64,000 bases of DNA from Nitrospirota bacterium. Its GTDB lineage: Bacteria > Nitrospirota > UBA9217. The stretch spans positions 576,001-640,000 of the forward strand of contig CAVVUN010000002.1 in NCBI GenBank assembly GCA_963751455.1, in the 5' to 3' direction. Under the pieces are notes generated by a model, which did no database searches, was not told the DNA's origin, and saw only the letters and a program-made list of their open reading frames with translations. Of the stretch, positions 3,741 through 59,072 are shown one piece after another. The position numbers and the translations under genes are program-made. How positions within the stretch are numbered: position 1 is the stretch's first letter; each line of letters opens with the position of its first letter.

Positions 3741-3770
3741 GAACCGCAGAAAAAGCAGCAAAAAACTTTT

Positions 3771-3923
3771 TCTCGCAAAGCCGCAAAGTCGCAAAGAAAA
3801 GCAATGCGAATAATTAGCAAAAAAAAGACATTTGCCAGGATTAACCAAACGCGAGAAAGAAAAAGAATTAGTTTAATTTGAACAAGTTCTGAGATTTCTT
3901 TGCGGTCTTTGCGTTTTGCGAGA
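3771..3923. repeat. Inverted pair of triple CGCAAAG units (intergenic trpE-trpG)
   Basis: tctcgcaaagccgcaaagtcgcaaaga (3771-3797) faces ttctttgcggtctttgcgttttgcgaga (3896-3923). Confidence 0.8.
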
Positions 3924-3942
3924 GATCGCTTTAGAGGTTTTC

Positions 3943-11016: not shown

Positions 11017-11101
11017 ATCCGCAGATTACGCAGATTGCGCAGAGTTTTAAAGATCAAAGTTGCCTCTTTCATTAAATAAGGGCGATCTGCGAAATCTGCG
11101 G
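11017..11101. repeat. Inverted pair of CGCAGAT 9-mer repeat arrays
   Basis: atccgcagattacgcagattgcgcagag faces atctgcgaaatctgcgg. Near-identical arrays occur at 34216-34302. Confidence 0.8.
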
Positions 11102-51210: not shown

Positions 51211-52206
51211 TTAATAGTGGTAGGCCTGACTTCCCACCTTGCCGCTGAAAATAATATAGCTGTATACCGTATAACCGATAACGATCGGCAGAATAATTGC
51301 GGCTCCCCAGAGTGTAAACTCAAGAGTTTTTATCTGAGCCGCAGCATCGACGAACGTCACATCAGGCGGAATGGCATAGGGATACACAGACGCAAACAAC
51401 GAGATATATCCGGCGAAAAAGAAGGACACACTGAAAATAAACGGCATGCGTTCACGGCGCACGCGGATGCTTTTGATAATCCCGTAAAAGGATAACACGC
51501 TGAGTGCAGGAAGAAGCCAGAGAAAATAGATTCGCGGCAGCGAAAGCCAGTTTGAGAGCACCATCGGGTAATGGAAAGGCGTCCAAACAATCATCACGAT
51601 TTGAAAGATCAGCACGACACAGGCTGACCAGAAGGCCTGATGAAACGCCCTTTCCTGCACTCTTCCCGTTGTTTTGAGGATGAGATACGTGGAGGCGAGA
51701 AGAACATAGCCTGCTATCAACCCGGTTGCAGCGCAAATTGAAAAAAGATTCAGCCAGTCTAAAGAACCGCCTGAGAAGCTGCTTTCAGCCACCCGGATTC
51801 CGGACAGGATCCCGCCGAGTGTAAGCCCCTGGGACACCACTGCGGTCAGGCTGCCCAGGAAAAATGCCCTGTCCCATCTGCTTTTTCGTGAAGCATTGCT
51901 CCGAAATTCGAAAGAAACACCGCGGAAGATAAGGCCGTACAAAAATGTAAAGAGAGGAACATACAGGGCGCTGAAGAGCACGGCGTACATCATCGGAAAT
52001 GCGACAAAAAGGCCGCCTCCGCTGAAAACAAGCCAAGTCTGGTTGGCGTCCCAGACCGGCGCTATGCTGTTCATAAGCGTGTTGCGTTCTTCCTCGCTTT
52101 TCGTGAACGGAAACAACAGCCCGATTCCGAGGCCGAAGCCGTCCAGGATTACGTAGAGGATGAGGGCAAGCCCAAGAAGGGCGATCCAGATGTTGACAAG
52201 GTCCAT
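51211..52206 (-). CDS. cydB: Cytochrome bd ubiquinol oxidase subunit II
   Basis: LDGFGLGIG, SIAPVWDANQTWLV..GG.LF.AFP..YA, RGVSFEFR. Confidence 0.95.
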   Translation of the reverse strand: MDLVNIWIALLGLALILYVILDGFGLGIGLLFPFTKSEEERNTLMNSIAPVWDANQTWLVFSGGGLFVAFPMMYAVLFSALYVPLFTFLYGLIFRGVSFEFRSNASRKSRWDRAFFLGSLTAVVSQGLTLGGILSGIRVAESSFSGGSLDWLNLFSICAATGLIAGYVLLASTYLILKTTGRVQERAFHQAFWSACVVLIFQIVMIVWTPFHYPMVLSNWLSLPRIYFLWLLPALSVLSFYGIIKSIRVRRERMPFIFSVSFFFAGYISLFASVYPYAIPPDVTFVDAAAQIKTLEFTLWGAAIILPIVIGYTVYSYIIFSGKVGSQAYHY

Positions 52207-52283
52207 GAATACCGCCAAAGAAGTGTCAGAGTGTCGAAGTATCAAGTGTCACAGTGTCGATTCGTCGAAGAAACTCTGCCTAT

Positions 52284-53645
52284 TTATGATAGCGGCCTCA
52301 TCCCGGCGGGCCGCTGTACAGCCGGTATGGGACTGGAAAGGTCCGGTCCCCGCTGTATTATCTTGAGAACGTAATATGCATAGATTGAACCGATGGCCGC
52401 AAAGATGATCAGAAAAAGGGTCAGGGACCAGACAACATTGCCGGCAGGGATAGGAGAGATGCCCTCAGCGGTCCTCATCATATTGTATACGAGCCAGGGC
52501 TGGCGGCCGACTTCGGTCGAGATCCATCCTGCTTCTACTGCTACAAAACCGAGGGGATGCGTGATCAGGAGCGTCCGGAGAAAAGGGCGGTGTTCGAAAA
52601 GCCTCCTTTTTCTCAGGAGCAGCACTGCCCATACCATGACGAGAAAATACAGCGTTCCGATTCCTATCATGATCCTGAACGCCCAGAACAAGACCGGGAC
52701 ATAGGGCCGATTTTCTCTCCTGACTTCCTTCAGTCCGCTTACCCTGCCTTTTAAGGAATGAGTGGCCAGGAGGCTGAGTCCGCTCGGTATGGAAATCTCA
52801 AGGATGTTTCGTTCAGCCTCCATATCAGGAAAGGCAACGACTGCGAAGTCAGCTCCCCGGTCGATGTTCGTATCCCAGTGACCTTCCAGGGCCGCCAGCT
52901 TGACGGGTTGATGCGTGAACACGCTCCGGCCGCTCATGTCGCCCAGTACGATCTGAAGCGGCGCAAATACCGCGGCCATTGCGAGCGCAAGCCCGAGGGA
53001 ACGACGGAAGAGCCTTATGTGGGAGTTGTTCAGCAGGTAATACGCGCTGACGCCTGCGACCACGAATACGGAGGTTTCGAGCCCCGCCATGGTCATATGA
53101 TACACGCGGACCCAGGTGGAAGGATTCAGGATTGCACTATTAAAATCAATGACGGTGAATCTGCCATCCATCACAGCAAACCCCGCAGGCGTCTGCATCC
53201 AGGAATTTGCGGCAAGGATCCAGAACGAGGAAATGATTGTCCCCGCTGCCACAAGGCATGTGGCAAGGAAATGCATGTGACGGCTGACCCTGTTCCACCC
53301 GAACAGCATGATGCCGAGAAAGCCCGATTCGAGAAAGAACGCGGTCATGACCTCGAAGGCCAGAAGAGGGGAAATCACGTTGCCCGCCATCTGGGAAAAA
53401 CGCGAAAAGTTTGTGCCGAATTCAAATTCGAGCACGATCCCGGTGACGACGCCGACTCCGAAATTGACAGCGAAGAACCTCGTCCAGAAGCGGTACATAC
53501 GGTAATACAGCTCTTCCCTGGTCCTGAGCCAAAGAAACTCAATGACAACAAGGTAAACCGAAAGCCCGATGGTCAGCGTGGGGAAGAGAATATGGAACAG
53601 CGTTGTTACTCCGAATTGTATCCGGGAGAGCAGAACGGTATCCAT
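52284..53645 (-). CDS. cydA: Cytochrome bd ubiquinol oxidase subunit I (short Q-loop)
   Basis: SRIQF...FHILFP, GVVTG...EFEFGTN, AFFLES.F, ANSWMQTP, QP.KLAA.E, GW..TEVGRQPW. Confidence 0.96.
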   Translation of the reverse strand: MDTVLLSRIQFGVTTLFHILFPTLTIGLSVYLVVIEFLWLRTREELYYRMYRFWTRFFAVNFGVGVVTGIVLEFEFGTNFSRFSQMAGNVISPLLAFEVMTAFFLESGFLGIMLFGWNRVSRHMHFLATCLVAAGTIISSFWILAANSWMQTPAGFAVMDGRFTVIDFNSAILNPSTWVRVYHMTMAGLETSVFVVAGVSAYYLLNNSHIRLFRRSLGLALAMAAVFAPLQIVLGDMSGRSVFTHQPVKLAALEGHWDTNIDRGADFAVVAFPDMEAERNILEISIPSGLSLLATHSLKGRVSGLKEVRRENRPYVPVLFWAFRIMIGIGTLYFLVMVWAVLLLRKRRLFEHRPFLRTLLITHPLGFVAVEAGWISTEVGRQPWLVYNMMRTAEGISPIPAGNVVWSLTLFLIIFAAIGSIYAYYVLKIIQRGPDLSSPIPAVQRPAGMRPLS

Positions 53646-53739
53646 GCAATGCCTCGCAGTGAAGGTATATCATTAATGATAGCACGAGCGGATTTAGTCA
53701 GTTACAAGTCAAATTCTTCTCAAAATGGGGAGAATATTT

Positions 53740-53834
53740 ACCGCGAAGGCGCGAAGAACGCGAAGGACATCAAAACAAAGAGGATTTTGTTTTAATTCAA
53801 GACTTGCAAGGTTTTCTTCGCGACCTTCGCGCCT
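53740..53834. repeat. Inverted pair of triple CGCGAAG units; the second copy is split by the IS110 element
   Basis: accgcgaaggcgcgaagaacgcgaag (53740-53765) faces cttcgcgaccttcgcgcCT (53816-53834) plus tcgcggt (55466-55472). Confidence 0.85.
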
Positions 53835-53914
53835 GGTTTATTGCTGTCAAGTATTTTTATTCTTTTTTATGTTTTATCTTTCTTCAAGCTTTGGCTTAAA
53901 AGAATGACTTCGAT

Positions 53915-54080
53915 CTTAGGTGCGGCACCTCGCCCAATCCTGGTATTAGAGGGTCTCGACAGAGCCCAAACCTTGCTTTATTGGGACTAAGGTGCAAGCG
54001 GGGAGTTATGTAAGCTTTGCGAGAAGGTCGGCATAGCCGCCTTAGATGGCGCGAACGATAATCTCCCCCGCCTGCACGCT
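53915..54080 (-). ncRNA. Candidate IS110 bridge/seek RNA downstream of the recombinase (target-binding and donor-binding loops)
   Basis: Two stem / internal-loop / hairpin modules (53992-54077 and 53933-53985). Their loop segments match the reconstructed target and donor sites. Confidence 0.75.
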
Positions 54081-54092
54081 AAAACATTTGAG

Positions 54093-55352
54093 TTACGCAG
54101 CCTCGAGCTGAAACGATTTTTTTATGTAATCTTCTTCGTAAACGCTATGATCACGTACGACGGCAAATATGATTCCGAGAAGCTTCCGCGCGACAGCGAT
54201 CAGCGCTTTGGTCTTGATCATTCCACGATCGAGATACCGCCGATACTGTTGGTGCATTACGCCGTCTTTGCGAACGGTATTGAGCGCGGCAAAGTACAGA
54301 AGTTTCCGGAGCAGCGGCCGGCCTCGCTTGGAAATGCGGCGCGTCCCTCTATGCTTGCCCGAGCTGATCTCAAAGAGGTCAAAACCGGCGAGCTTCATGA
54401 TCTCCCCGAGGGTGCTGAACTTTCGGAAATCGCCCACTTCGCCGATGAGACCGGCAGCGGTGACCTCGCCGATCCCTTTGAACGAAAGAATCGAGTTGCT
54501 GTAGGGAATCTGCTGAAGTTGAAGAACCATCTCCGCTTCCAGTTCGGAGTTAAATTGCTCAGAGACCTCCATAGCGGCAAGAATCGCTCGGATCTCTCGG
54601 AGGATGCTGGCTTGGCCTTCGGTTACGCCTACGGACGATTCTGCGGCCTCGTAGAGCGCTTGGGCTCGGTCTGCTCCAAGCTTGCCCCGGCTCACCTTTC
54701 TGATCGTCTGGGTGAGCTTGTCAACGCATTGCGCCGCAATCTCCTTTGGTGTCGGGCAGTGTTTCAAAAGATGTTTCGCAGTTGCCGTCTTTACATCTTT
54801 CATTACCTGCTTAAACTCTGGAAAAATGATCGCGATCAAGCCCTGAAGCTGATTCACCAATGCCGTGTGACGCTGGGTGCTCCTCTCTCTGGCCTGGGTC
54901 AGCCTCCGAAGCTCGGCGGCGGGACCTTCCGGGATCACCACGCTCAGGGCATGTCCAAGCTCTATGATGTCGGCAATGACCTTGGGGTCTTTCTGGTCCG
55001 TCTTGTTCGGAGAATTGCCCTGGAGCTCTTTAACTCTCTTGGTGTGCATGGGATTTACCTGTACAAGTCGCACGTCTCGCGCCCGCATGAAATGCACCAG
55101 AGCCTCGGCGTACGACCCGGTGGATTCGTATCCAAAGACAATTTCGTCGAGATTATGGATTTCCTTCGCCCGGGATATCCGCTGCCAGAATTCGTGGAAA
55201 CCCGACCCGTTGTTCGAGAAAGGAAAACTCTTCACGTCGGTTCCATCCGGACAGCGCCAGTACCCGTAATGTTTGTCTTTGCCCATATCAGCGGTCACGA
55301 TAAGAGATTTTCCATTGACTACTCTAAACTTTTTTGTTTTAATCTTCTTCAA
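54093..55352 (-). CDS. IS110-family DEDD recombinase/transposase
   Basis: ADMGKDKH, YESTGSY, VNP, KTDQKD, GIG...A..LIGE.GD..KF, SSGK...ISKRG...LR..LY, AVARKL. TTG start at 55352 follows an AGAGG RBS. Confidence 0.95.
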   Translation of the reverse strand: MKKIKTKKFRVVNGKSLIVTADMGKDKHYGYWRCPDGTDVKSFPFSNNGSGFHEFWQRISRAKEIHNLDEIVFGYESTGSYAEALVHFMRARDVRLVQVNPMHTKRVKELQGNSPNKTDQKDPKVIADIIELGHALSVVIPEGPAAELRRLTQARERSTQRHTALVNQLQGLIAIIFPEFKQVMKDVKTATAKHLLKHCPTPKEIAAQCVDKLTQTIRKVSRGKLGADRAQALYEAAESSVGVTEGQASILREIRAILAAMEVSEQFNSELEAEMVLQLQQIPYSNSILSFKGIGEVTAAGLIGEVGDFRKFSTLGEIMKLAGFDLFEISSGKHRGTRRISKRGRPLLRKLLYFAALNTVRKDGVMHQQYRRYLDRGMIKTKALIAVARKLLGIIFAVVRDHSVYEEDYIKKSFQLEAA

Positions 55353-55560
55353 GGCTATACCTCTTTCTTCGGTTTGGATTACCAACTTGCCAGCTGGTTT
55401 CAAATCGAGAAAGAGTATAGCCTTTTTTAAGTAAGGCTCAATTGCTTTCTGCAATATAGCAAGCTTCGCGGTTCCAAGGTTTTAGTTCCGGATTTCCCGG
55501 GTTAGGATCAGAAGCGCTTCTTAATCCCCGCAAAAGAGTCTTTGCCGCATGCTATTTGGA

Positions 55561-55950
55561 TCACCAACTGCTTCTTATGTCGACGATATCCTGGATAAGC
55601 GCCGAAAGTTTTCGAGCTTTTTTTTGCGGTCCGCTGTTCAATGCTTCAAGAAGCGGATCACAGAAATACCATGTGCATCTCCACGGTCTCAGCCAGCGGG
55701 GAGTAATACAGCCGTTCAGACCCATGAACTGGCACGGGCCGTCGGGGAGGAGGGAAGGATCGTACAGGGGGAGAGCCTGCCCAAGAGCCGAGACATAGCG
55801 GGCGTCCACGGCATCGAGGAGGCAGCGCCGCTGTTTGCAGCACACGTCACGGCAGTCCGGACATGTCCGGGCAGTGTATGCGTCTATCAGCGGTGATAGC
55901 TCGATAAGCAGCGCTTTCAGCTTTTGGGCAATTGCTTGTTCTCCGGTCAT
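55561..55950 (-). CDS. Cys-rich hypothetical protein (YkgJ/Fe-S-cluster-like)
   Basis: CPDCRDVCC, CQF.G..GC, RPWRC.WYFC. ATGA overlap with the cyoE stop. Confidence 0.65.
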   Translation of the reverse strand: MTGEQAIAQKLKALLIELSPLIDAYTARTCPDCRDVCCKQRRCLLDAVDARYVSALGQALPLYDPSLLPDGPCQFMGLNGCITPRWLRPWRCTWYFCDPLLEALNSGPQKKARKLSALIQDIVDIRSSW

Positions 55951-56815
55951 GGCATTTTGGGGAACACGCCCCGGATTATTACGACGGACATCAGGAGCAC
56001 GACATAGCCGTTCAGCATTGCGAATGCGGAGAGCGCGTGATCCGGCGTCGAGCGCGGAGTAACGAGCGAATGGCCTTTTATGACGATGTTGATGGCTGCA
56101 GGCAGAAGCAAAAAATAGAGGAGGCCGGGCTTGATCGCTCCGAAAACAGGAAGCAGAAGCGCCGAGGCGGCGGCAGAGCATATCCACGCGAAGGTGATGC
56201 GGGCTATCTGCTTTTTATCGAGCAGCTTGGTGAGCGACGGAAGGCCGGCCAGTTCATATTCCTCGCCGTGATGCAGGACCTGCAGCCAGAAATGGGGCAC
56301 CTGCCACAGAAAAAAACGAAACAGAGGATGAGGAGCCGGGGATCGCTCAAACCGCCGCCGGCCGCGACCCACCCGATGGCAGGAGGGATCATGCCGACAA
56401 GCGCACCAGGCACTGCGGCAAAAGCCGTCAGACGCTTCAGGTTCGTGTAGACGCCGTTGTAGCAGAATGCGGCACTCACGCCCAGTATGAAAGCGGCTTT
56501 TCCAAGCAATGAGAGCAGCGCGAGTCCGCAAAAAATAAGCATGAGCGCAAAGGCATGGGCCTGTATCGGAGAAAGAGCGCCTGAAGGCAGGGGACGTTGT
56601 TTCGTTCGGTCCATGCGGGCGTCGACATCCTGCTCCTGCCACTGGTTAAGCGCGGAAGCGCCGGCGCTCAACACGAAGACGGAGACCGCAGCAACCAGTC
56701 CGTTTGAAAAAGACGCGGGTGATTCCAGCAAATAACCTGCAAGTGCCGAAAAAGCGGCATATACTGCAATGGGAAATCTGCAAAGTCGCCCGTAGGTATT
56801 GAGAATAGCAGTCAT
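55947..56815 (-). CDS. cyoE: Protoheme IX farnesyltransferase (heme o synthase), frameshifted in a T7 run at 56310-56316
   Basis: SALNQ..E...DARMDRT..RPLPSG, YT.LKR and GA..G..PP..GW are in one frame; FLWQVPHFW...EY..AG.P is in the next. Confidence 0.88.
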
Positions 56816-57759
56816 TTCAAGTTTTTGATGTATGCGACGATCCGATCAATCTCTTTGTTCGTCAGCTGCCCCTGCTGCGAAGGCATGATCGGCGGATACC
56901 CCTTTACCCGGTCGAGCTCCGGATTCAGAAGCGTCTGCCTGATAAAGGCCTCGTCAACAACCACGCTGCGCTCTTTTCCCGTATTGATCACTGTTTCCTT
57001 TTTGCCGAACATCCCCTTGAAGGTCGGTCCTACGCTCGGCGTTCCGTCGATGCTGTGGCAGGAGATGCAGCCTTTTTCCCTGACAAGCTCCGCGCCGGAT
57101 TCCGGCTCGGACGGTTCGGATGCGGCAGCGTGCTGCTCCTTCCCGGCCGCCGCAGCTTCTCTCCCGCCGTACCAGGCATTGAAATCCGCGAGGTTCATCA
57201 CTTCCACTTTCGTGGTCATCCGTGCATGCGCGACCCCGCAGTATTCGGTGCAGAACAGATCGTAGGAACCGGTCTCATCAGGCTGGAACCAGAGATAGGT
57301 CTGCCTTCCGGGAACCGCGTCCTCCTTGATGCGGTATGCGGGGATGTAAAGACTGTGAAGTACGTCCTCTGATGTGATGAGCAGCTTCACCGGTTTCCGG
57401 AGCGGTACCCGGAGCACGCTGTCCTGTTTGCCGTTCTCATACTCGAACGTCCAGGAAAACTGACGTGCCGTGACCTTGATCGGCATCGCGTCAGGCGGGA
57501 CCGTTCTCATATATTGAAAGCCCTTCCACCCGGCGAAAAAAATGAGCAGCACGAGGATCGTCGGGATAACGGTCCAGAGTATCTCGATCGAAACACTTTC
57601 CTTTACGTCCTCGGGTTGCGGATTTCTCTTTCTGCTGTACCTGATCGTGAAGAAAATCATGACCCCGGTATTCAGTAACAGAAGGGTAAGGGAAATCCCG
57701 AGAATAAAGAAGAAAACGCTGTCTGCGGGATTCGACATATTTGGCCAGCCGGTTAACAT
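56812..57759 (-). CDS. coxB: Cytochrome c oxidase subunit II with C-terminal cytochrome c
   Basis: EILWT.IP, QFSW.F.Y, DVLHS, K.DAVPG, CTEYCGVAH..M (CuA site), CISCH. Confidence 0.95.
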   Translation of the reverse strand: MLTGWPNMSNPADSVFFFILGISLTLLLLNTGVMIFFTIRYSRKRNPQPEDVKESVSIEILWTVIPTILVLLIFFAGWKGFQYMRTVPPDAMPIKVTARQFSWTFEYENGKQDSVLRVPLRKPVKLLITSEDVLHSLYIPAYRIKEDAVPGRQTYLWFQPDETGSYDLFCTEYCGVAHARMTTKVEVMNLADFNAWYGGREAAAAGKEQHAAASEPSEPESGAELVREKGCISCHSIDGTPSVGPTFKGMFGKKETVINTGKERSVVVDEAFIRQTLLNPELDRVKGYPPIMPSQQGQLTNKEIDRIVAYIKNLK

Positions 57760-57774
57760 ATAATTCCTTTAAGA

Positions 57775-57862
57775 ATTTCAAATATCAAATTTCAAATTGC
57801 AAAATGCAAAGTAAGGATCAATTCAAACTCAATTTGCAATTTACAATTTGCACTTTGCAATA
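57775..57862. repeat. Inverted 7-mer tandem arrays (TTGCAAA/TTTCAAA) within the cox operon
   Basis: atttcaaatatcaaatttcaaattgcaaaatgcaaag faces aatttgcaatttacaatttgcactttgcaat. Confidence 0.7.
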
Positions 57863-57867
57863 TTCTT

Positions 57868-58149
57868 TTACCTGTACCATATGTCATAAAATGTGAGCCA
57901 GATTATGATCGTTATGGTTCCGATGGGCACAAAGAACAGCAGTTTGAATATTCTTTTTTCATACTTGAGGTGCATAAAGAACCAGAGCACGAGGCTGGCT
58001 TTTGTCGATGCGATCAGCAAATTCATCGCCATGCTCCATTGACCCATGTGCATCCGTGCAGCCTGGATCGTTATCGCAGTCAGGCCGAGTAGGGCGATCC
58101 ACGTAATCATGAACGTGCGTGCAGTGGCGTGCTCTTTGTTTGCTGTCAT
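57868..58149 (-). CDS. Cytochrome c oxidase subunit IV
   Basis: W.ALL.LT.IT, IA..KA.LV..FFMHLKYE. Confidence 0.9.
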   Translation of the reverse strand: MTANKEHATARTFMITWIALLGLTAITIQAARMHMGQWSMAMNLLIASTKASLVLWFFMHLKYEKRIFKLLFFVPIGTITIIIWLTFYDIWYR

Positions 58150-58164
58150 TGCGGCTCCTTCGTT

Positions 58165-58464
58165 TCAATCAAGTGTTCTATTGCAGTGCCTGCAGCGTTT
58201 CAGAGGAAGAAGGGACCAGAAAAATAGTTCCATTCCGCAGACGTTAAGGGGCCTGAGCAGTACCGGGACGCGGCAATCCGGACACCGGACAAGGAACGCA
58301 TACAAAGTATATGCTATAACGGTCAGAGCCAGGTATGCCAGAACCATCAGGTGACCAGCCTGAAAATCCCAGGCCCCGAACCCGAGCAGAAAGAACAGGC
58401 CAAGCCAGCAGATGACGATTATTATATTTTTGGATCGCCGGTTCATGATGGCCGGATTCCTCAC
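58165..58464 (-). CDS. Small membrane protein with two CxxC motifs inside the cox operon
   Basis: Two TM helices, RCPDC...RCRHC. Overlaps the coxC stop. Confidence 0.6.
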   Translation of the reverse strand: MRNPAIMNRRSKNIIIVICWLGLFFLLGFGAWDFQAGHLMVLAYLALTVIAYTLYAFLVRCPDCRVPVLLRPLNVCGMELFFWSLLPLKRCRHCNRTLD

Positions 58465-59072
58465 GTAATGAGATAGAAGAGCGGAAACAGGTATATCCAG
58501 ATGATGTCTACGAGGTGCCAGAACAGCCCGGTATTCTCAAGTTTTATATAGTCATTGCTCGAAATGACGCCCCGGCCGGTCAGTACGAGCGTAAACGCTA
58601 TCAGGCCCGCGCCTATCAGAACGTGAACGGCATGAATGCCGGTCATCACGTAGTAGAGTCCGAAATACAGAATCTTTCCGTGGCTCATCGCGAGCAGTTC
58701 AGGTGAATTCGGGAACACGCCGTGCCGGATATGGCTGCTCCATTCAAAAAACTTGTCGACCAGGAAGGCGGCCGCCAGCACGAGAGTAAGGGCCTGGAAG
58801 AGCATTGACAAACGCTTTTCGCCCTTTTTCACTGCCAATATGGAAAGGGCCATAGTCAGGCTGCTCGTCAACAGGATGACGGTATTGACAGCCCCGAGCG
58901 CTACGTTCATGTCCTTCCCGGCTTCGTGAAAATCGGCCGTATGAACCGTCCGGTATACCGCGTACACCAGGAACATGCCGCCGAACAGCAGAATCTCCGT
59001 AAACAGGAAAAGCCACATGCCGAGCTTTGCACCGACGTAATCACGATGTTCGATGTGAGAAGTTTCGTTCAT
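58461..59072 (-). CDS. coxC: Cytochrome c oxidase subunit III
   Basis: GMWLFLFTE...FGG.F..Y, NT.ILLTSS, YYVMTGIH..HV, GLFWHLVD.IW. Confidence 0.94.
   Translation of the reverse strand: MNETSHIEHRDYVGAKLGMWLFLFTEILLFGGMFLVYAVYRTVHTADFHEAGKDMNVALGAVNTVILLTSSLTMALSILAVKKGEKRLSMLFQALTLVLAAAFLVDKFFEWSSHIRHGVFPNSPELLAMSHGKILYFGLYYVMTGIHAVHVLIGAGLIAFTLVLTGRGVISSNDYIKLENTGLFWHLVDIIWIYLFPLFYLIT

Follow-up and report, generated by a model that had tools for sequence, protein, structure and literature searches.

The bridge RNA mechanism of IS110-family insertion sequences (IS) has been known since 2024, the targeting of repeats by IS110 elements has been known for longer, and natural reprogramming is also in print. 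The accessible text of the reports on IS621 (PMC11208160, PMC11208158) and on the IS1111 group, with ISEc11, ISKpn4 and ISPa11 (PMC11187229), provides the closest models, and CazIS110-1 a further one (bioRxiv 10.1101/2025.10.25.684509). A 1,631-bp IS110-family element was analysed in a stretch of 64,000 nucleotides (nt) from a Nitrospirota bacterium (GCA_963751455.1, contig CAVVUN010000002.1, positions 576,001 to 640,000), referred to below as the window. The element sits at an exact CT inside an arm of a multi-copy host hairpin, most likely placed there by bridge-RNA-guided recombination (a probability of roughly 0.9). It is likely another example of a known mechanism, aimed at a repeat family that was not found described in print.

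According to the accessible text of the two IS621 reports, that element shares with the present one a DEDD plus serine recombinase, the CT core, a target loop followed by a donor loop, the order of guide and handshake letters (read on the plus strand of the window), promoter boxes split between the ends, and insertion into a multi-copy intergenic palindrome. It differs in having its RNA in front of the gene instead of behind it, and in a solved protein chain of 328 amino acids (aa) as against 419; furthermore, gene and RNA here run against the CT strand, and the target is a tandem-word hairpin, not the repetitive extragenic palindromic (REP) sequence of E. coli. The protein match is weak (E 1.8e-9). 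That IS621 targets E. coli REP sequences had been cited as established in an earlier note, made from the DNA letters without database searches; IS621 is only a distant model, because the RNA of the present element lies behind its gene.

An IS110 element inside a hairpin arm

The host repeat in the window has two arms made of short tandem words, one intact and one split by the element:

53835..55465, minus strand: IS110-family element, 1,631 bp with one CT core (111-nt left end, 1,260-nt gene, 258-nt right end)
53740..53765, plus strand: intact host-hairpin arm of three CGCGAAG words, an unoccupied copy of the same 14-base target
53816..53834, minus strand: inner part of the split arm (words 2 and 3)
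55466..55472, minus strand: outer part of the split arm (word 1)
53833..53834, plus strand: right-end core CT (AG in gene direction); the second core CT is at 55464-55465
53693..55508: host repeat unit in full, about 185 bp without the element (53693-53834 and 55466-55508); its outer ends, beyond the arms, are unlike each other

Excision of 53835-55465 restores a 26-base arm that equals the reverse complement of the intact arm at 24 of 26 positions, with 2 mismatches. That the IS110 lies exactly inside one arm of an intergenic CGCGAAG pair, and that its excision fixes both the boundaries and the CT core, had been claimed in the earlier note. Both statements are borne out, the second independently, by an uninterrupted sister repeat on the C9 contig of the same genome that matches the rejoined site without a difference through 78 bases (52 and 26 on the two sides of the junction). 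In a BLAST comparison of the rejoined site, 52 of 99 pieces cross the junction with at least 10 bases on each side. The CT core at both ends, the lack of long terminal repeats and the scarless unoccupied site are all traits of the IS110 family, and the element agrees with that family in every feature that can be judged from sequence.

No second copy of the element was found in the 15-contig assembly by blastn, tblastn, Pfam search or RNA profile; two other IS110-type matches above the cut-off are unrelated to it. Contigs 98-99% identical to the element come from two other studies and run 26-27 bases into the same arm, one of them also 17 bases on the other side, with no listed difference in the guides. 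A close transposase occurs in 3 of 60 relatives from the family and phylum. A search for the circle joint or the empty joint of the locus in 4 of 24 sequencing runs yielded none, two raw-read runs amounting to one read each, and no RNA run containing the element was found.

The predicted bridge RNA

Folding of the right end predicts two hairpins that both contain a large internal loop (fold z = -3.18) and that correspond to the two loops expected of a bridge RNA:

53925..54079, minus strand: predicted bridge RNA of about 155 nt, with a target-binding hairpin (54079-53992) followed by a donor-binding hairpin (about 53995-53925)
54048..54055, minus strand: first target guide TTCGCGCC, pairing with the core G and 7 flank bases at 53826-53833 (8/8)
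54015..54022, minus strand: second target guide TCGCAAAG, pairing with core and flank at 55464-55471 (6 pairs, 1 wobble, 1 mismatch)
53972..53977, minus strand: first donor guide AGCAAG, matching the left end of the element
53939..53944, minus strand: second donor guide ACCAG, matching the right end and core, with the predicted handshake base after it at 53939

In a consensus of 50 diverse relatives (less than 90% identical, drawn from the 109 insertions described below), both partners vary in 26 of 39 base pairs, and 96.6% of cells are paired, compared with 33-51% when the partners are slid. A non-coding RNA with target and donor loops whose guides match both partners is a trait of the IS110 family, and the sequence here predicts one. 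The guide proposed in the earlier note was the 11-mer TTCTCGCAAAG, which is indeed present on the minus strand at 54025-54015 and again at 3770-3780, but only its last 7-8 letters belong to the predicted guide; the first three are part of a conserved RNA stem. With 21 occurrences in the genome and 11 in the reversed genome, the match of this 11-mer is weak on its own. The better guide, TTCGCGCC, which pairs with the other flank, had been overlooked. One weak Rfam match (E 0.11; 24.6 bits, where the gathering score is 80) was rejected; it falls on the opposite end of the element.

Recombinase gene and predicted junction promoter

The gene in front of the RNA and the sequences near the two ends are as follows:

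54093..55352, minus strand: IS110 recombinase gene, 419 aa, TTG start after a purine-rich ribosome site
53845..53850, minus strand: -35 box TTGACA
55453..55458, minus strand: -10-like box TATATT in the left end
53839..53844, plus strand: subterminal inverted repeat TATTGC, with its partner GCAATA at 55451-55456 (6 bp perfect; 7 and 4 bases inside the cores)

The protein matches PF01548 (E 2e-26), PF02371 (E 9e-22) and NF033542 (210.7 bits, cut-off 140), and D22, E76, D119, D122 and S331, read against the IS621 alignment, are all present. The TTG at 55352 is the likely start because the purine-rich site precedes it; relatives have ATG, GTG or TTG there. An open reading frame (ORF) of 453 aa from 55454, whose start lies inside the predicted -10 box, is likely too long, and a 427-aa ORF on the plus strand was also rejected as the true gene.

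Joining the two ends of the element gives TTGACA-17-TATATT, with 17 bases between the boxes, a predicted sigma-70 promoter that would exist only in the circle. Such junction promoters are described for IS621 and ISEc11 in the accessible text of PMC11208160 and PMC11187229. The subterminal inverted repeat reaches 8 of 13 positions overall by eye and is variable and poorly kept among relatives; co-variation inside it was sought in the 109 related insertions, and none was found.

Guides follow targets across the lineage

Related insertions were collected by two scans, which gave 80 of 132 and 80 of 510 confirmed matches, and 166 loci were fetched. Both ends, the RNA and at least 12 flank bases were available for 113, of which 109, including the present element, had distinct flanks. 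The flank letters were not used in locating the ends of the relatives. When every RNA column was compared with every target position (7,788 comparisons), the top 11 all fell on the two guide diagonals, and this holds also for the 73 insertions whose guide pairs are distinct. The mean number of paired positions, out of 12 variable ones, is 10.0, compared with 5.25 in 1,000 shuffles (maximum 6.13). The same excess is seen within the 65 insertions into word arrays (10.28 paired, against 8.22 when shuffled, maximum 8.66) and in the other 44 (9.59 against 4.07). Since pairing exceeds the shuffles within the word-array class alone, the guides follow variants of the word.

The second guide pairs with the two core letters in 106 and 107 of the 109 relatives. 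On the donor side, five letters of the first guide match the left end in 108 of 109, two of them with a shared variant, and the middle letter of the second guide equals the end letter in all 109 (C in 103, A in 4, T in 2); the donor guides thus follow even rare variants of the ends. The handshake letter equals target position +1 in 79 of 109, with a shuffled mean of 54.8 and a maximum of 69. This relation is already reported for IS621 orthologues, according to the accessible text of PMC11208158.

The host hairpin family

In BLAST, the number of other loci covering the region climbs at about 53693-53700 and drops at about 55508, with 26-31 pieces over the outer parts, and these positions limit the host unit. 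Its sister on contig C1 folds as a hairpin (z = -4.38). The window holds one further member:

3762..3932: sister hairpin of the CGCAAAG subtype, with 38-nt arms that are 71% complementary; a poorer target, with 2 mismatches to the first guide

CGCRAAG words recur at distances of 8, 9 and 17 bases, far above chance. The genome has 66 CGCRAAG-NN-CGCRAAG dimers, against 0 in an order-5 Markov simulation, and a looser three-word pattern finds 262 arms, against 23 in the reversed genome. A family of CGCRAAG trimers had been proposed in the earlier note; the family stands far above chance, but its words are CGCNRAG-like, and strict CGCRAAG trimers number only 2. Of the 262 arms, 229 lie outside called genes (a rough gene caller puts the non-coding share of the genome at 23%), and 74 inward-facing pairs can be formed, 64 with spacers of less than 65 nt. 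Altogether the arms make up 0.14% of the genome.

As a multi-copy, intergenic inverted pair with a short spacer, the host repeat has the build of a REPIN. Like the REP and REPIN sequences with their RAYT genes and the TIRtrons, as covered in the accessible text of PMC3116915 and PMC3733652, it occurs as many intergenic inverted pairs, with rarer arm copies around a small enzyme gene. Unlike them, it is built from tandem 7-base words with a period of 8-9 bases, and the gene that its arms bracket encodes a GxxExxY protein with a PD-(D/E)XK nuclease fold instead of an HUH tyrosine transposase. By eye, the listed copies consist of tandem CGCNRAG words with no GTAG or CGTC tag, and the words CGCAAAG and CGCAGAG are absent from the text of PMC3733652.

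How well do the guides single out these arms? There are 57 sites in the genome that depart from the guides at no more than one position, 50 of them in arms and 52 outside called genes; the reversed genome has 2. Together with the co-variation of guides and flanks among the 109 insertions, this upholds the proposal that the element is RNA-programmed against a multi-copy intergenic repeat other than the REP of E. coli. The accompanying idea of many safe landing sites holds in part: most of the best sites are non-coding, but no perfect site exists and a single copy is in use. Many landing sites are therefore available but are not seen to be used.

Several further observations concern the repeats themselves. 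The outer stretches of the unit, 53693-53739 and 55473-55508, consist of an end of the TAGTCAGTTAC type and of a small CCGG hairpin with GTTAGG after it. Hairpins built from other words also carry each of these ends (pattern hits in the genome: 35 and 17), as though ends and arms were independent modules. About ten near-identical CGCAAAG arms share the same 60 following bases, and nine near-identical 103-base hairpins have spacers of 54-55 bases. These sets are recent expansions of single subtypes, with examples at C1:11568, C1:14364, C10:20558, C12:589308, C12:654853, C15:696098, C2:554040 and C2:660896. The closest empty sister (C9:64511-64733) has a 43-base palindrome-like insert in its other arm, and a similar insert is found in a C15 copy; it seems to be a second small element using these arms. 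Another word array of the same general build, with CGCAGAT words, lies at 11020-11044 of the window.

Gene cassettes with inverted arms

Each of the eight places in the genome with a GxxExxY gene (PF13366, TIGR04256) lies between inverted arms of 18-41 nt in which short words are repeated, and two of the eight have CGC-type words. One relative of the element (L142) splits an arm just ahead of a GxxExxY gene. Because all eight places are bracketed in this way, and because of L142, the hairpins are likely the empty forms of GxxExxY cassettes, and the host repeat would be such a pair of inverted arms lacking the nuclease gene between them. A Pfam search of the 95 nearest flank ORFs of the related insertions found GxxExxY twice and no DUF559, four-helix or RAYT gene.

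Similar arrangements surround other small genes. The only DUF559 gene of the genome (C6:154803-155093; L177:1437-1903) has perfect 30-base inverted arms, which resemble the CCCTC..GGGGAG targets of seven related IS elements. The resemblance to this one DUF559 locus suggests that the other target classes may be tied to DUF559, four-helix or RAYT genes. Four-helix-bundle genes (PF05635) adjoin short tandem-word arrays, with different words in each case, at C15:113825, C9:376666, C9:369506 and C2:320592.

A tentative wider picture, which we consider possible but far from assured, is that of a distinct IS110 lineage parasitising selfish cassettes made of a gene and its inverted arms. Such a lineage would aim at one constant base in the arms, both of GxxExxY cassettes and of their empty hairpins, would retune its two guides to word variants, would hop repeatedly to the arms of other cassettes (DUF559-type, GTAG-type palindromes), and may ride along with the spread of the cassettes.

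Targets and reprogramming

Tandem CRCNRAG word arrays hold 65 of the 109 insertions and GTAG-type palindromes 11. Short purine-rich sites account for 10, CCCTC..GGGGAG palindromes for 7, GGTTCAAG repeats for 4 and CCCCCTT..AAGGGGG repeats for 2; the remaining 10 lie elsewhere. Within the word class, the cut follows the first word, leaving one word to the left, in 57 of 65, and the spacer that comes after this word is one base long in 60 of 65. The inverted partner arm is found on the right side in 44 of 65 and on the left side in none. Because the spacer is one base, the motif CGCRAAG-nn-CGCRAAG, which the earlier note had put forward as a test, names the wrong junction: insertion occurs at word-N-word. 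The condition named there as refuting, other copies in unrelated sequence, is not borne out by the relatives: the four further insertions whose guides differ from this element's by at most one letter all share its repeat type, and a single genome has eight copies of one related element (L028-L039), every one of them in a word-array arm.

A tree of 92 distinct proteins requires at least 22 changes of target class, where the least possible number is 6 and shuffling gives 35.6. The word class alone accounts for 13 changes, 10 of them forced by well-supported branches. This was a quick tree with SH-aLRT support only and a midpoint root, and it gives no direction for the changes. In the nearest relative (L087, 93% identical), both guides have been retuned to a shifted word variant, and the next relatives, at 74-77% identity, use short purine-rich non-repeat sites. 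Judged by these sequences, guides have been exchanged many times within the lineage, for the most part between word-array variants and sometimes in favour of other repeats or short non-repeat sites.

Two other kinds of site deserve mention. L063 and L066, as well as the incomplete L047 and L062, insert at the junction of TGCAAAG and GTCTC, which resembles what we take to be the terminal repeat of IS5-family elements, presumably in the way that IS4321 aims at transposon ends. L009 and L011 adjoin other, different IS110 genes at a GTAG-type site, which suggests a piling up of IS110 elements at one such repeat.

Arrival at the arm

How did the element come to lie in this arm? Arrival by bridge-RNA-guided recombination is likely because the predicted two-loop RNA matches both flanks of the site and both of the element's own ends. 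What the sequences show directly are the boundaries, the core, the domains of the recombinase, and four guide matches that co-vary with flanks and ends; the steps of the mechanism we infer from the work on IS621, ISEc11 and CazIS110-1. The element would form a circle, and its joined ends would create the sigma-70 promoter, switching on transcription of the gene and the RNA. The recombinase would bind the bridge RNA, whose two loops would pair with the 14-base word-N-word target and with the circle junction, respectively; strand exchange at the CT core would then join circle and target. The junction between words 1 and 2 of the arm would be that target, setting both the position and the orientation, with the right end towards the inside of the hairpin. 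Such insertion would rarely break a gene, because the arms are numerous and mostly intergenic.

Several points weigh against this account. Neither the RNA, nor the circle, nor transposition was observed. No site in the genome fits both guides perfectly, the occupied site itself has one mismatch, and the element is present in a single copy despite the 57 near-matching sites. Of the 166 loci, 57 were dropped, 53 because they were incomplete and 4 because their flanks were duplicates. As the relatives share ancestry, the shuffles overstate significance, and the junction promoter boxes found in 100 of the 109 are largely a circular count, since the ends of the relatives were located by this element's own motifs. 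The target classes are hand-written patterns with labels of our own, GTAG-REP included. Of the 65 word-class insertions, 21 have no partner arm (9 of these with less than 150 nt of flank), and a GxxExxY gene is in the fetched flank of only 2 of the 65 (32 of which have at least 400 nt).

It is possible, though doubtful, that the element is a recent immigrant, RNA-guided but programmed for the CGCAAAG word variant of another host, which made one near-match landing here. The genome has 0 perfect sites and 24 of the occupied type, it holds neither a second element nor a second copy of the RNA, and the samples with the 98-99% identical contigs have no depth on the neighbouring genes, all of which fits a recent arrival. 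However, L130, whose protein is 66% identical, combines identical guide letters with the same mismatched site, and this position is mismatched in 18 of the 109 relatives, so that tolerance of the mismatch looks general. In any case, an immigrant origin alters the history of the element, not the mechanism. Less probable still, and on balance unlikely, is that pairing is insufficient and that insertion also depends, as a second signal, on the hairpin or cruciform formed by the host repeat. For ISPpu10, a stem-loop at the target is needed in addition to pairing by the guide, according to the accessible text of bioRxiv 10.64898/2026.03.19.712850, and the host unit folds well and offers a partner arm at 44 of the 65 sites. 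Yet the guides alone choose arms in 50 of the 57 best sites, 12 of the 65 word-array sites with enough flank have no partner arm, and the relatives at 74-77% identity insert where no repeat is evident in the flanks.

A position in the repeat by chance, or by mis-joining between repeat copies in the assembly, with coincidental guide matches, is very improbable. The assembly has 15 contigs and 5.37% contamination, and no read set spanning the whole locus was found. On the other hand, the empty sister is exact, two guides match, co-variation extends across the clade, independent contigs have the same junction letters, and the arms are a minute fraction of the genome; co-variation and the empty sister refute this explanation in the main. 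Bridge-RNA-guided insertion accounts for the locus best.

Place among IS110 elements

In layout the element follows the IS1111 group, with 258 nt downstream of the gene, including the RNA, and 111 nt upstream. Further likenesses, drawn from the accessible text of PMC11187229, are the long downstream non-coding region, a top-strand complement that precedes the bottom-strand match, short asymmetric extensions outside the subterminal repeat, a junction promoter, and natural reprogramming between relatives. Unlike that group, it has a subterminal repeat of 6 bp perfect (8 of 13) and not 11-13 bp, a protein of 419 and not 330-350 aa, and the motif GFDLFEISSG without the proline of GL-P----SG or GL-P----S(T)G. 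The IS621/IS492/Piv branch, with 315-330 aa and the RNA upstream, differs from it in both respects. On sequence grounds, the element is thus IS1111-like in layout, lacks two defining IS1111 features and lies outside the IS621 branch.

The long IS110-type proteins offer the best fit. Transposases of the long IS110 subgroup have 395-455 aa, and a downstream non-coding region is noted there as an exception (PMC11187229, accessible text); the element shares their length class and their short imperfect subterminal repeats. The nearest annotated full-length alignments are a Clostridium tagluense IS110 transposase (34%) and members of the ISEc20 (26%) and IS116 (24%) families, and the RNA profile of the present clade has no match in those reference loci. 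None of the 2,381 plasmid records with a match reaches 60% identity, the best among the matches listed being 33-35%. ISPpu9 and ISPpu10 of Pseudomonas putida are likewise IS110 elements in multi-copy intergenic hairpin repeats, but of another target family, and a structural requirement is shown for ISPpu10 (PMC12288879 and bioRxiv 10.64898/2026.03.19.712850, accessible text).

Since mechanism and repeat targeting are already known, the locus alone would not surprise a specialist. The value lies in the lineage: 109 insertions with near-constant ends and donor loop and 73 guide pairs form a natural table of mismatch tolerance for a long-type recombinase with a downstream RNA. In this table, positions -4 and +1 are loose, and +1 is also followed by the handshake base. 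A widespread family of tandem-word hairpins is a long-standing target of mobile DNA, which gives a handle on the family and on the GxxExxY genes tied to it. No literature on this clade or this repeat was found in a search that did not extend to ISfinder, subscription journals or bioRxiv supplements; ISfinder and those supplements may list the clade. Among the GxxExxY titles listed none points to a repeat link, and PDDEXK3 with inverted repeats yielded one review, at title level. The end motif of the element is absent from the readable portions of the supplements of PMC11208160. Large bridge-RNA surveys exist (10.64898/2026.10.21.760802, accessible text).

Minor observations

In some relatives (L007, L008, L014, L089 and others) the right end extends 90-150 bases further than usual beyond the predicted RNA, and in L088 and L093 further still; the extra length is possibly cargo. 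In the window, repeat and IS lie between co-directional terminal-oxidase genes (51211-59072), the repeat 48 bases and the IS 190 bases upstream of cydA. A hybrid promoter using the outward -35 box towards cydA was rejected, as the flank has no -10-like box at 17 bases. The insertion could, by its position, affect read-through into cydAB.

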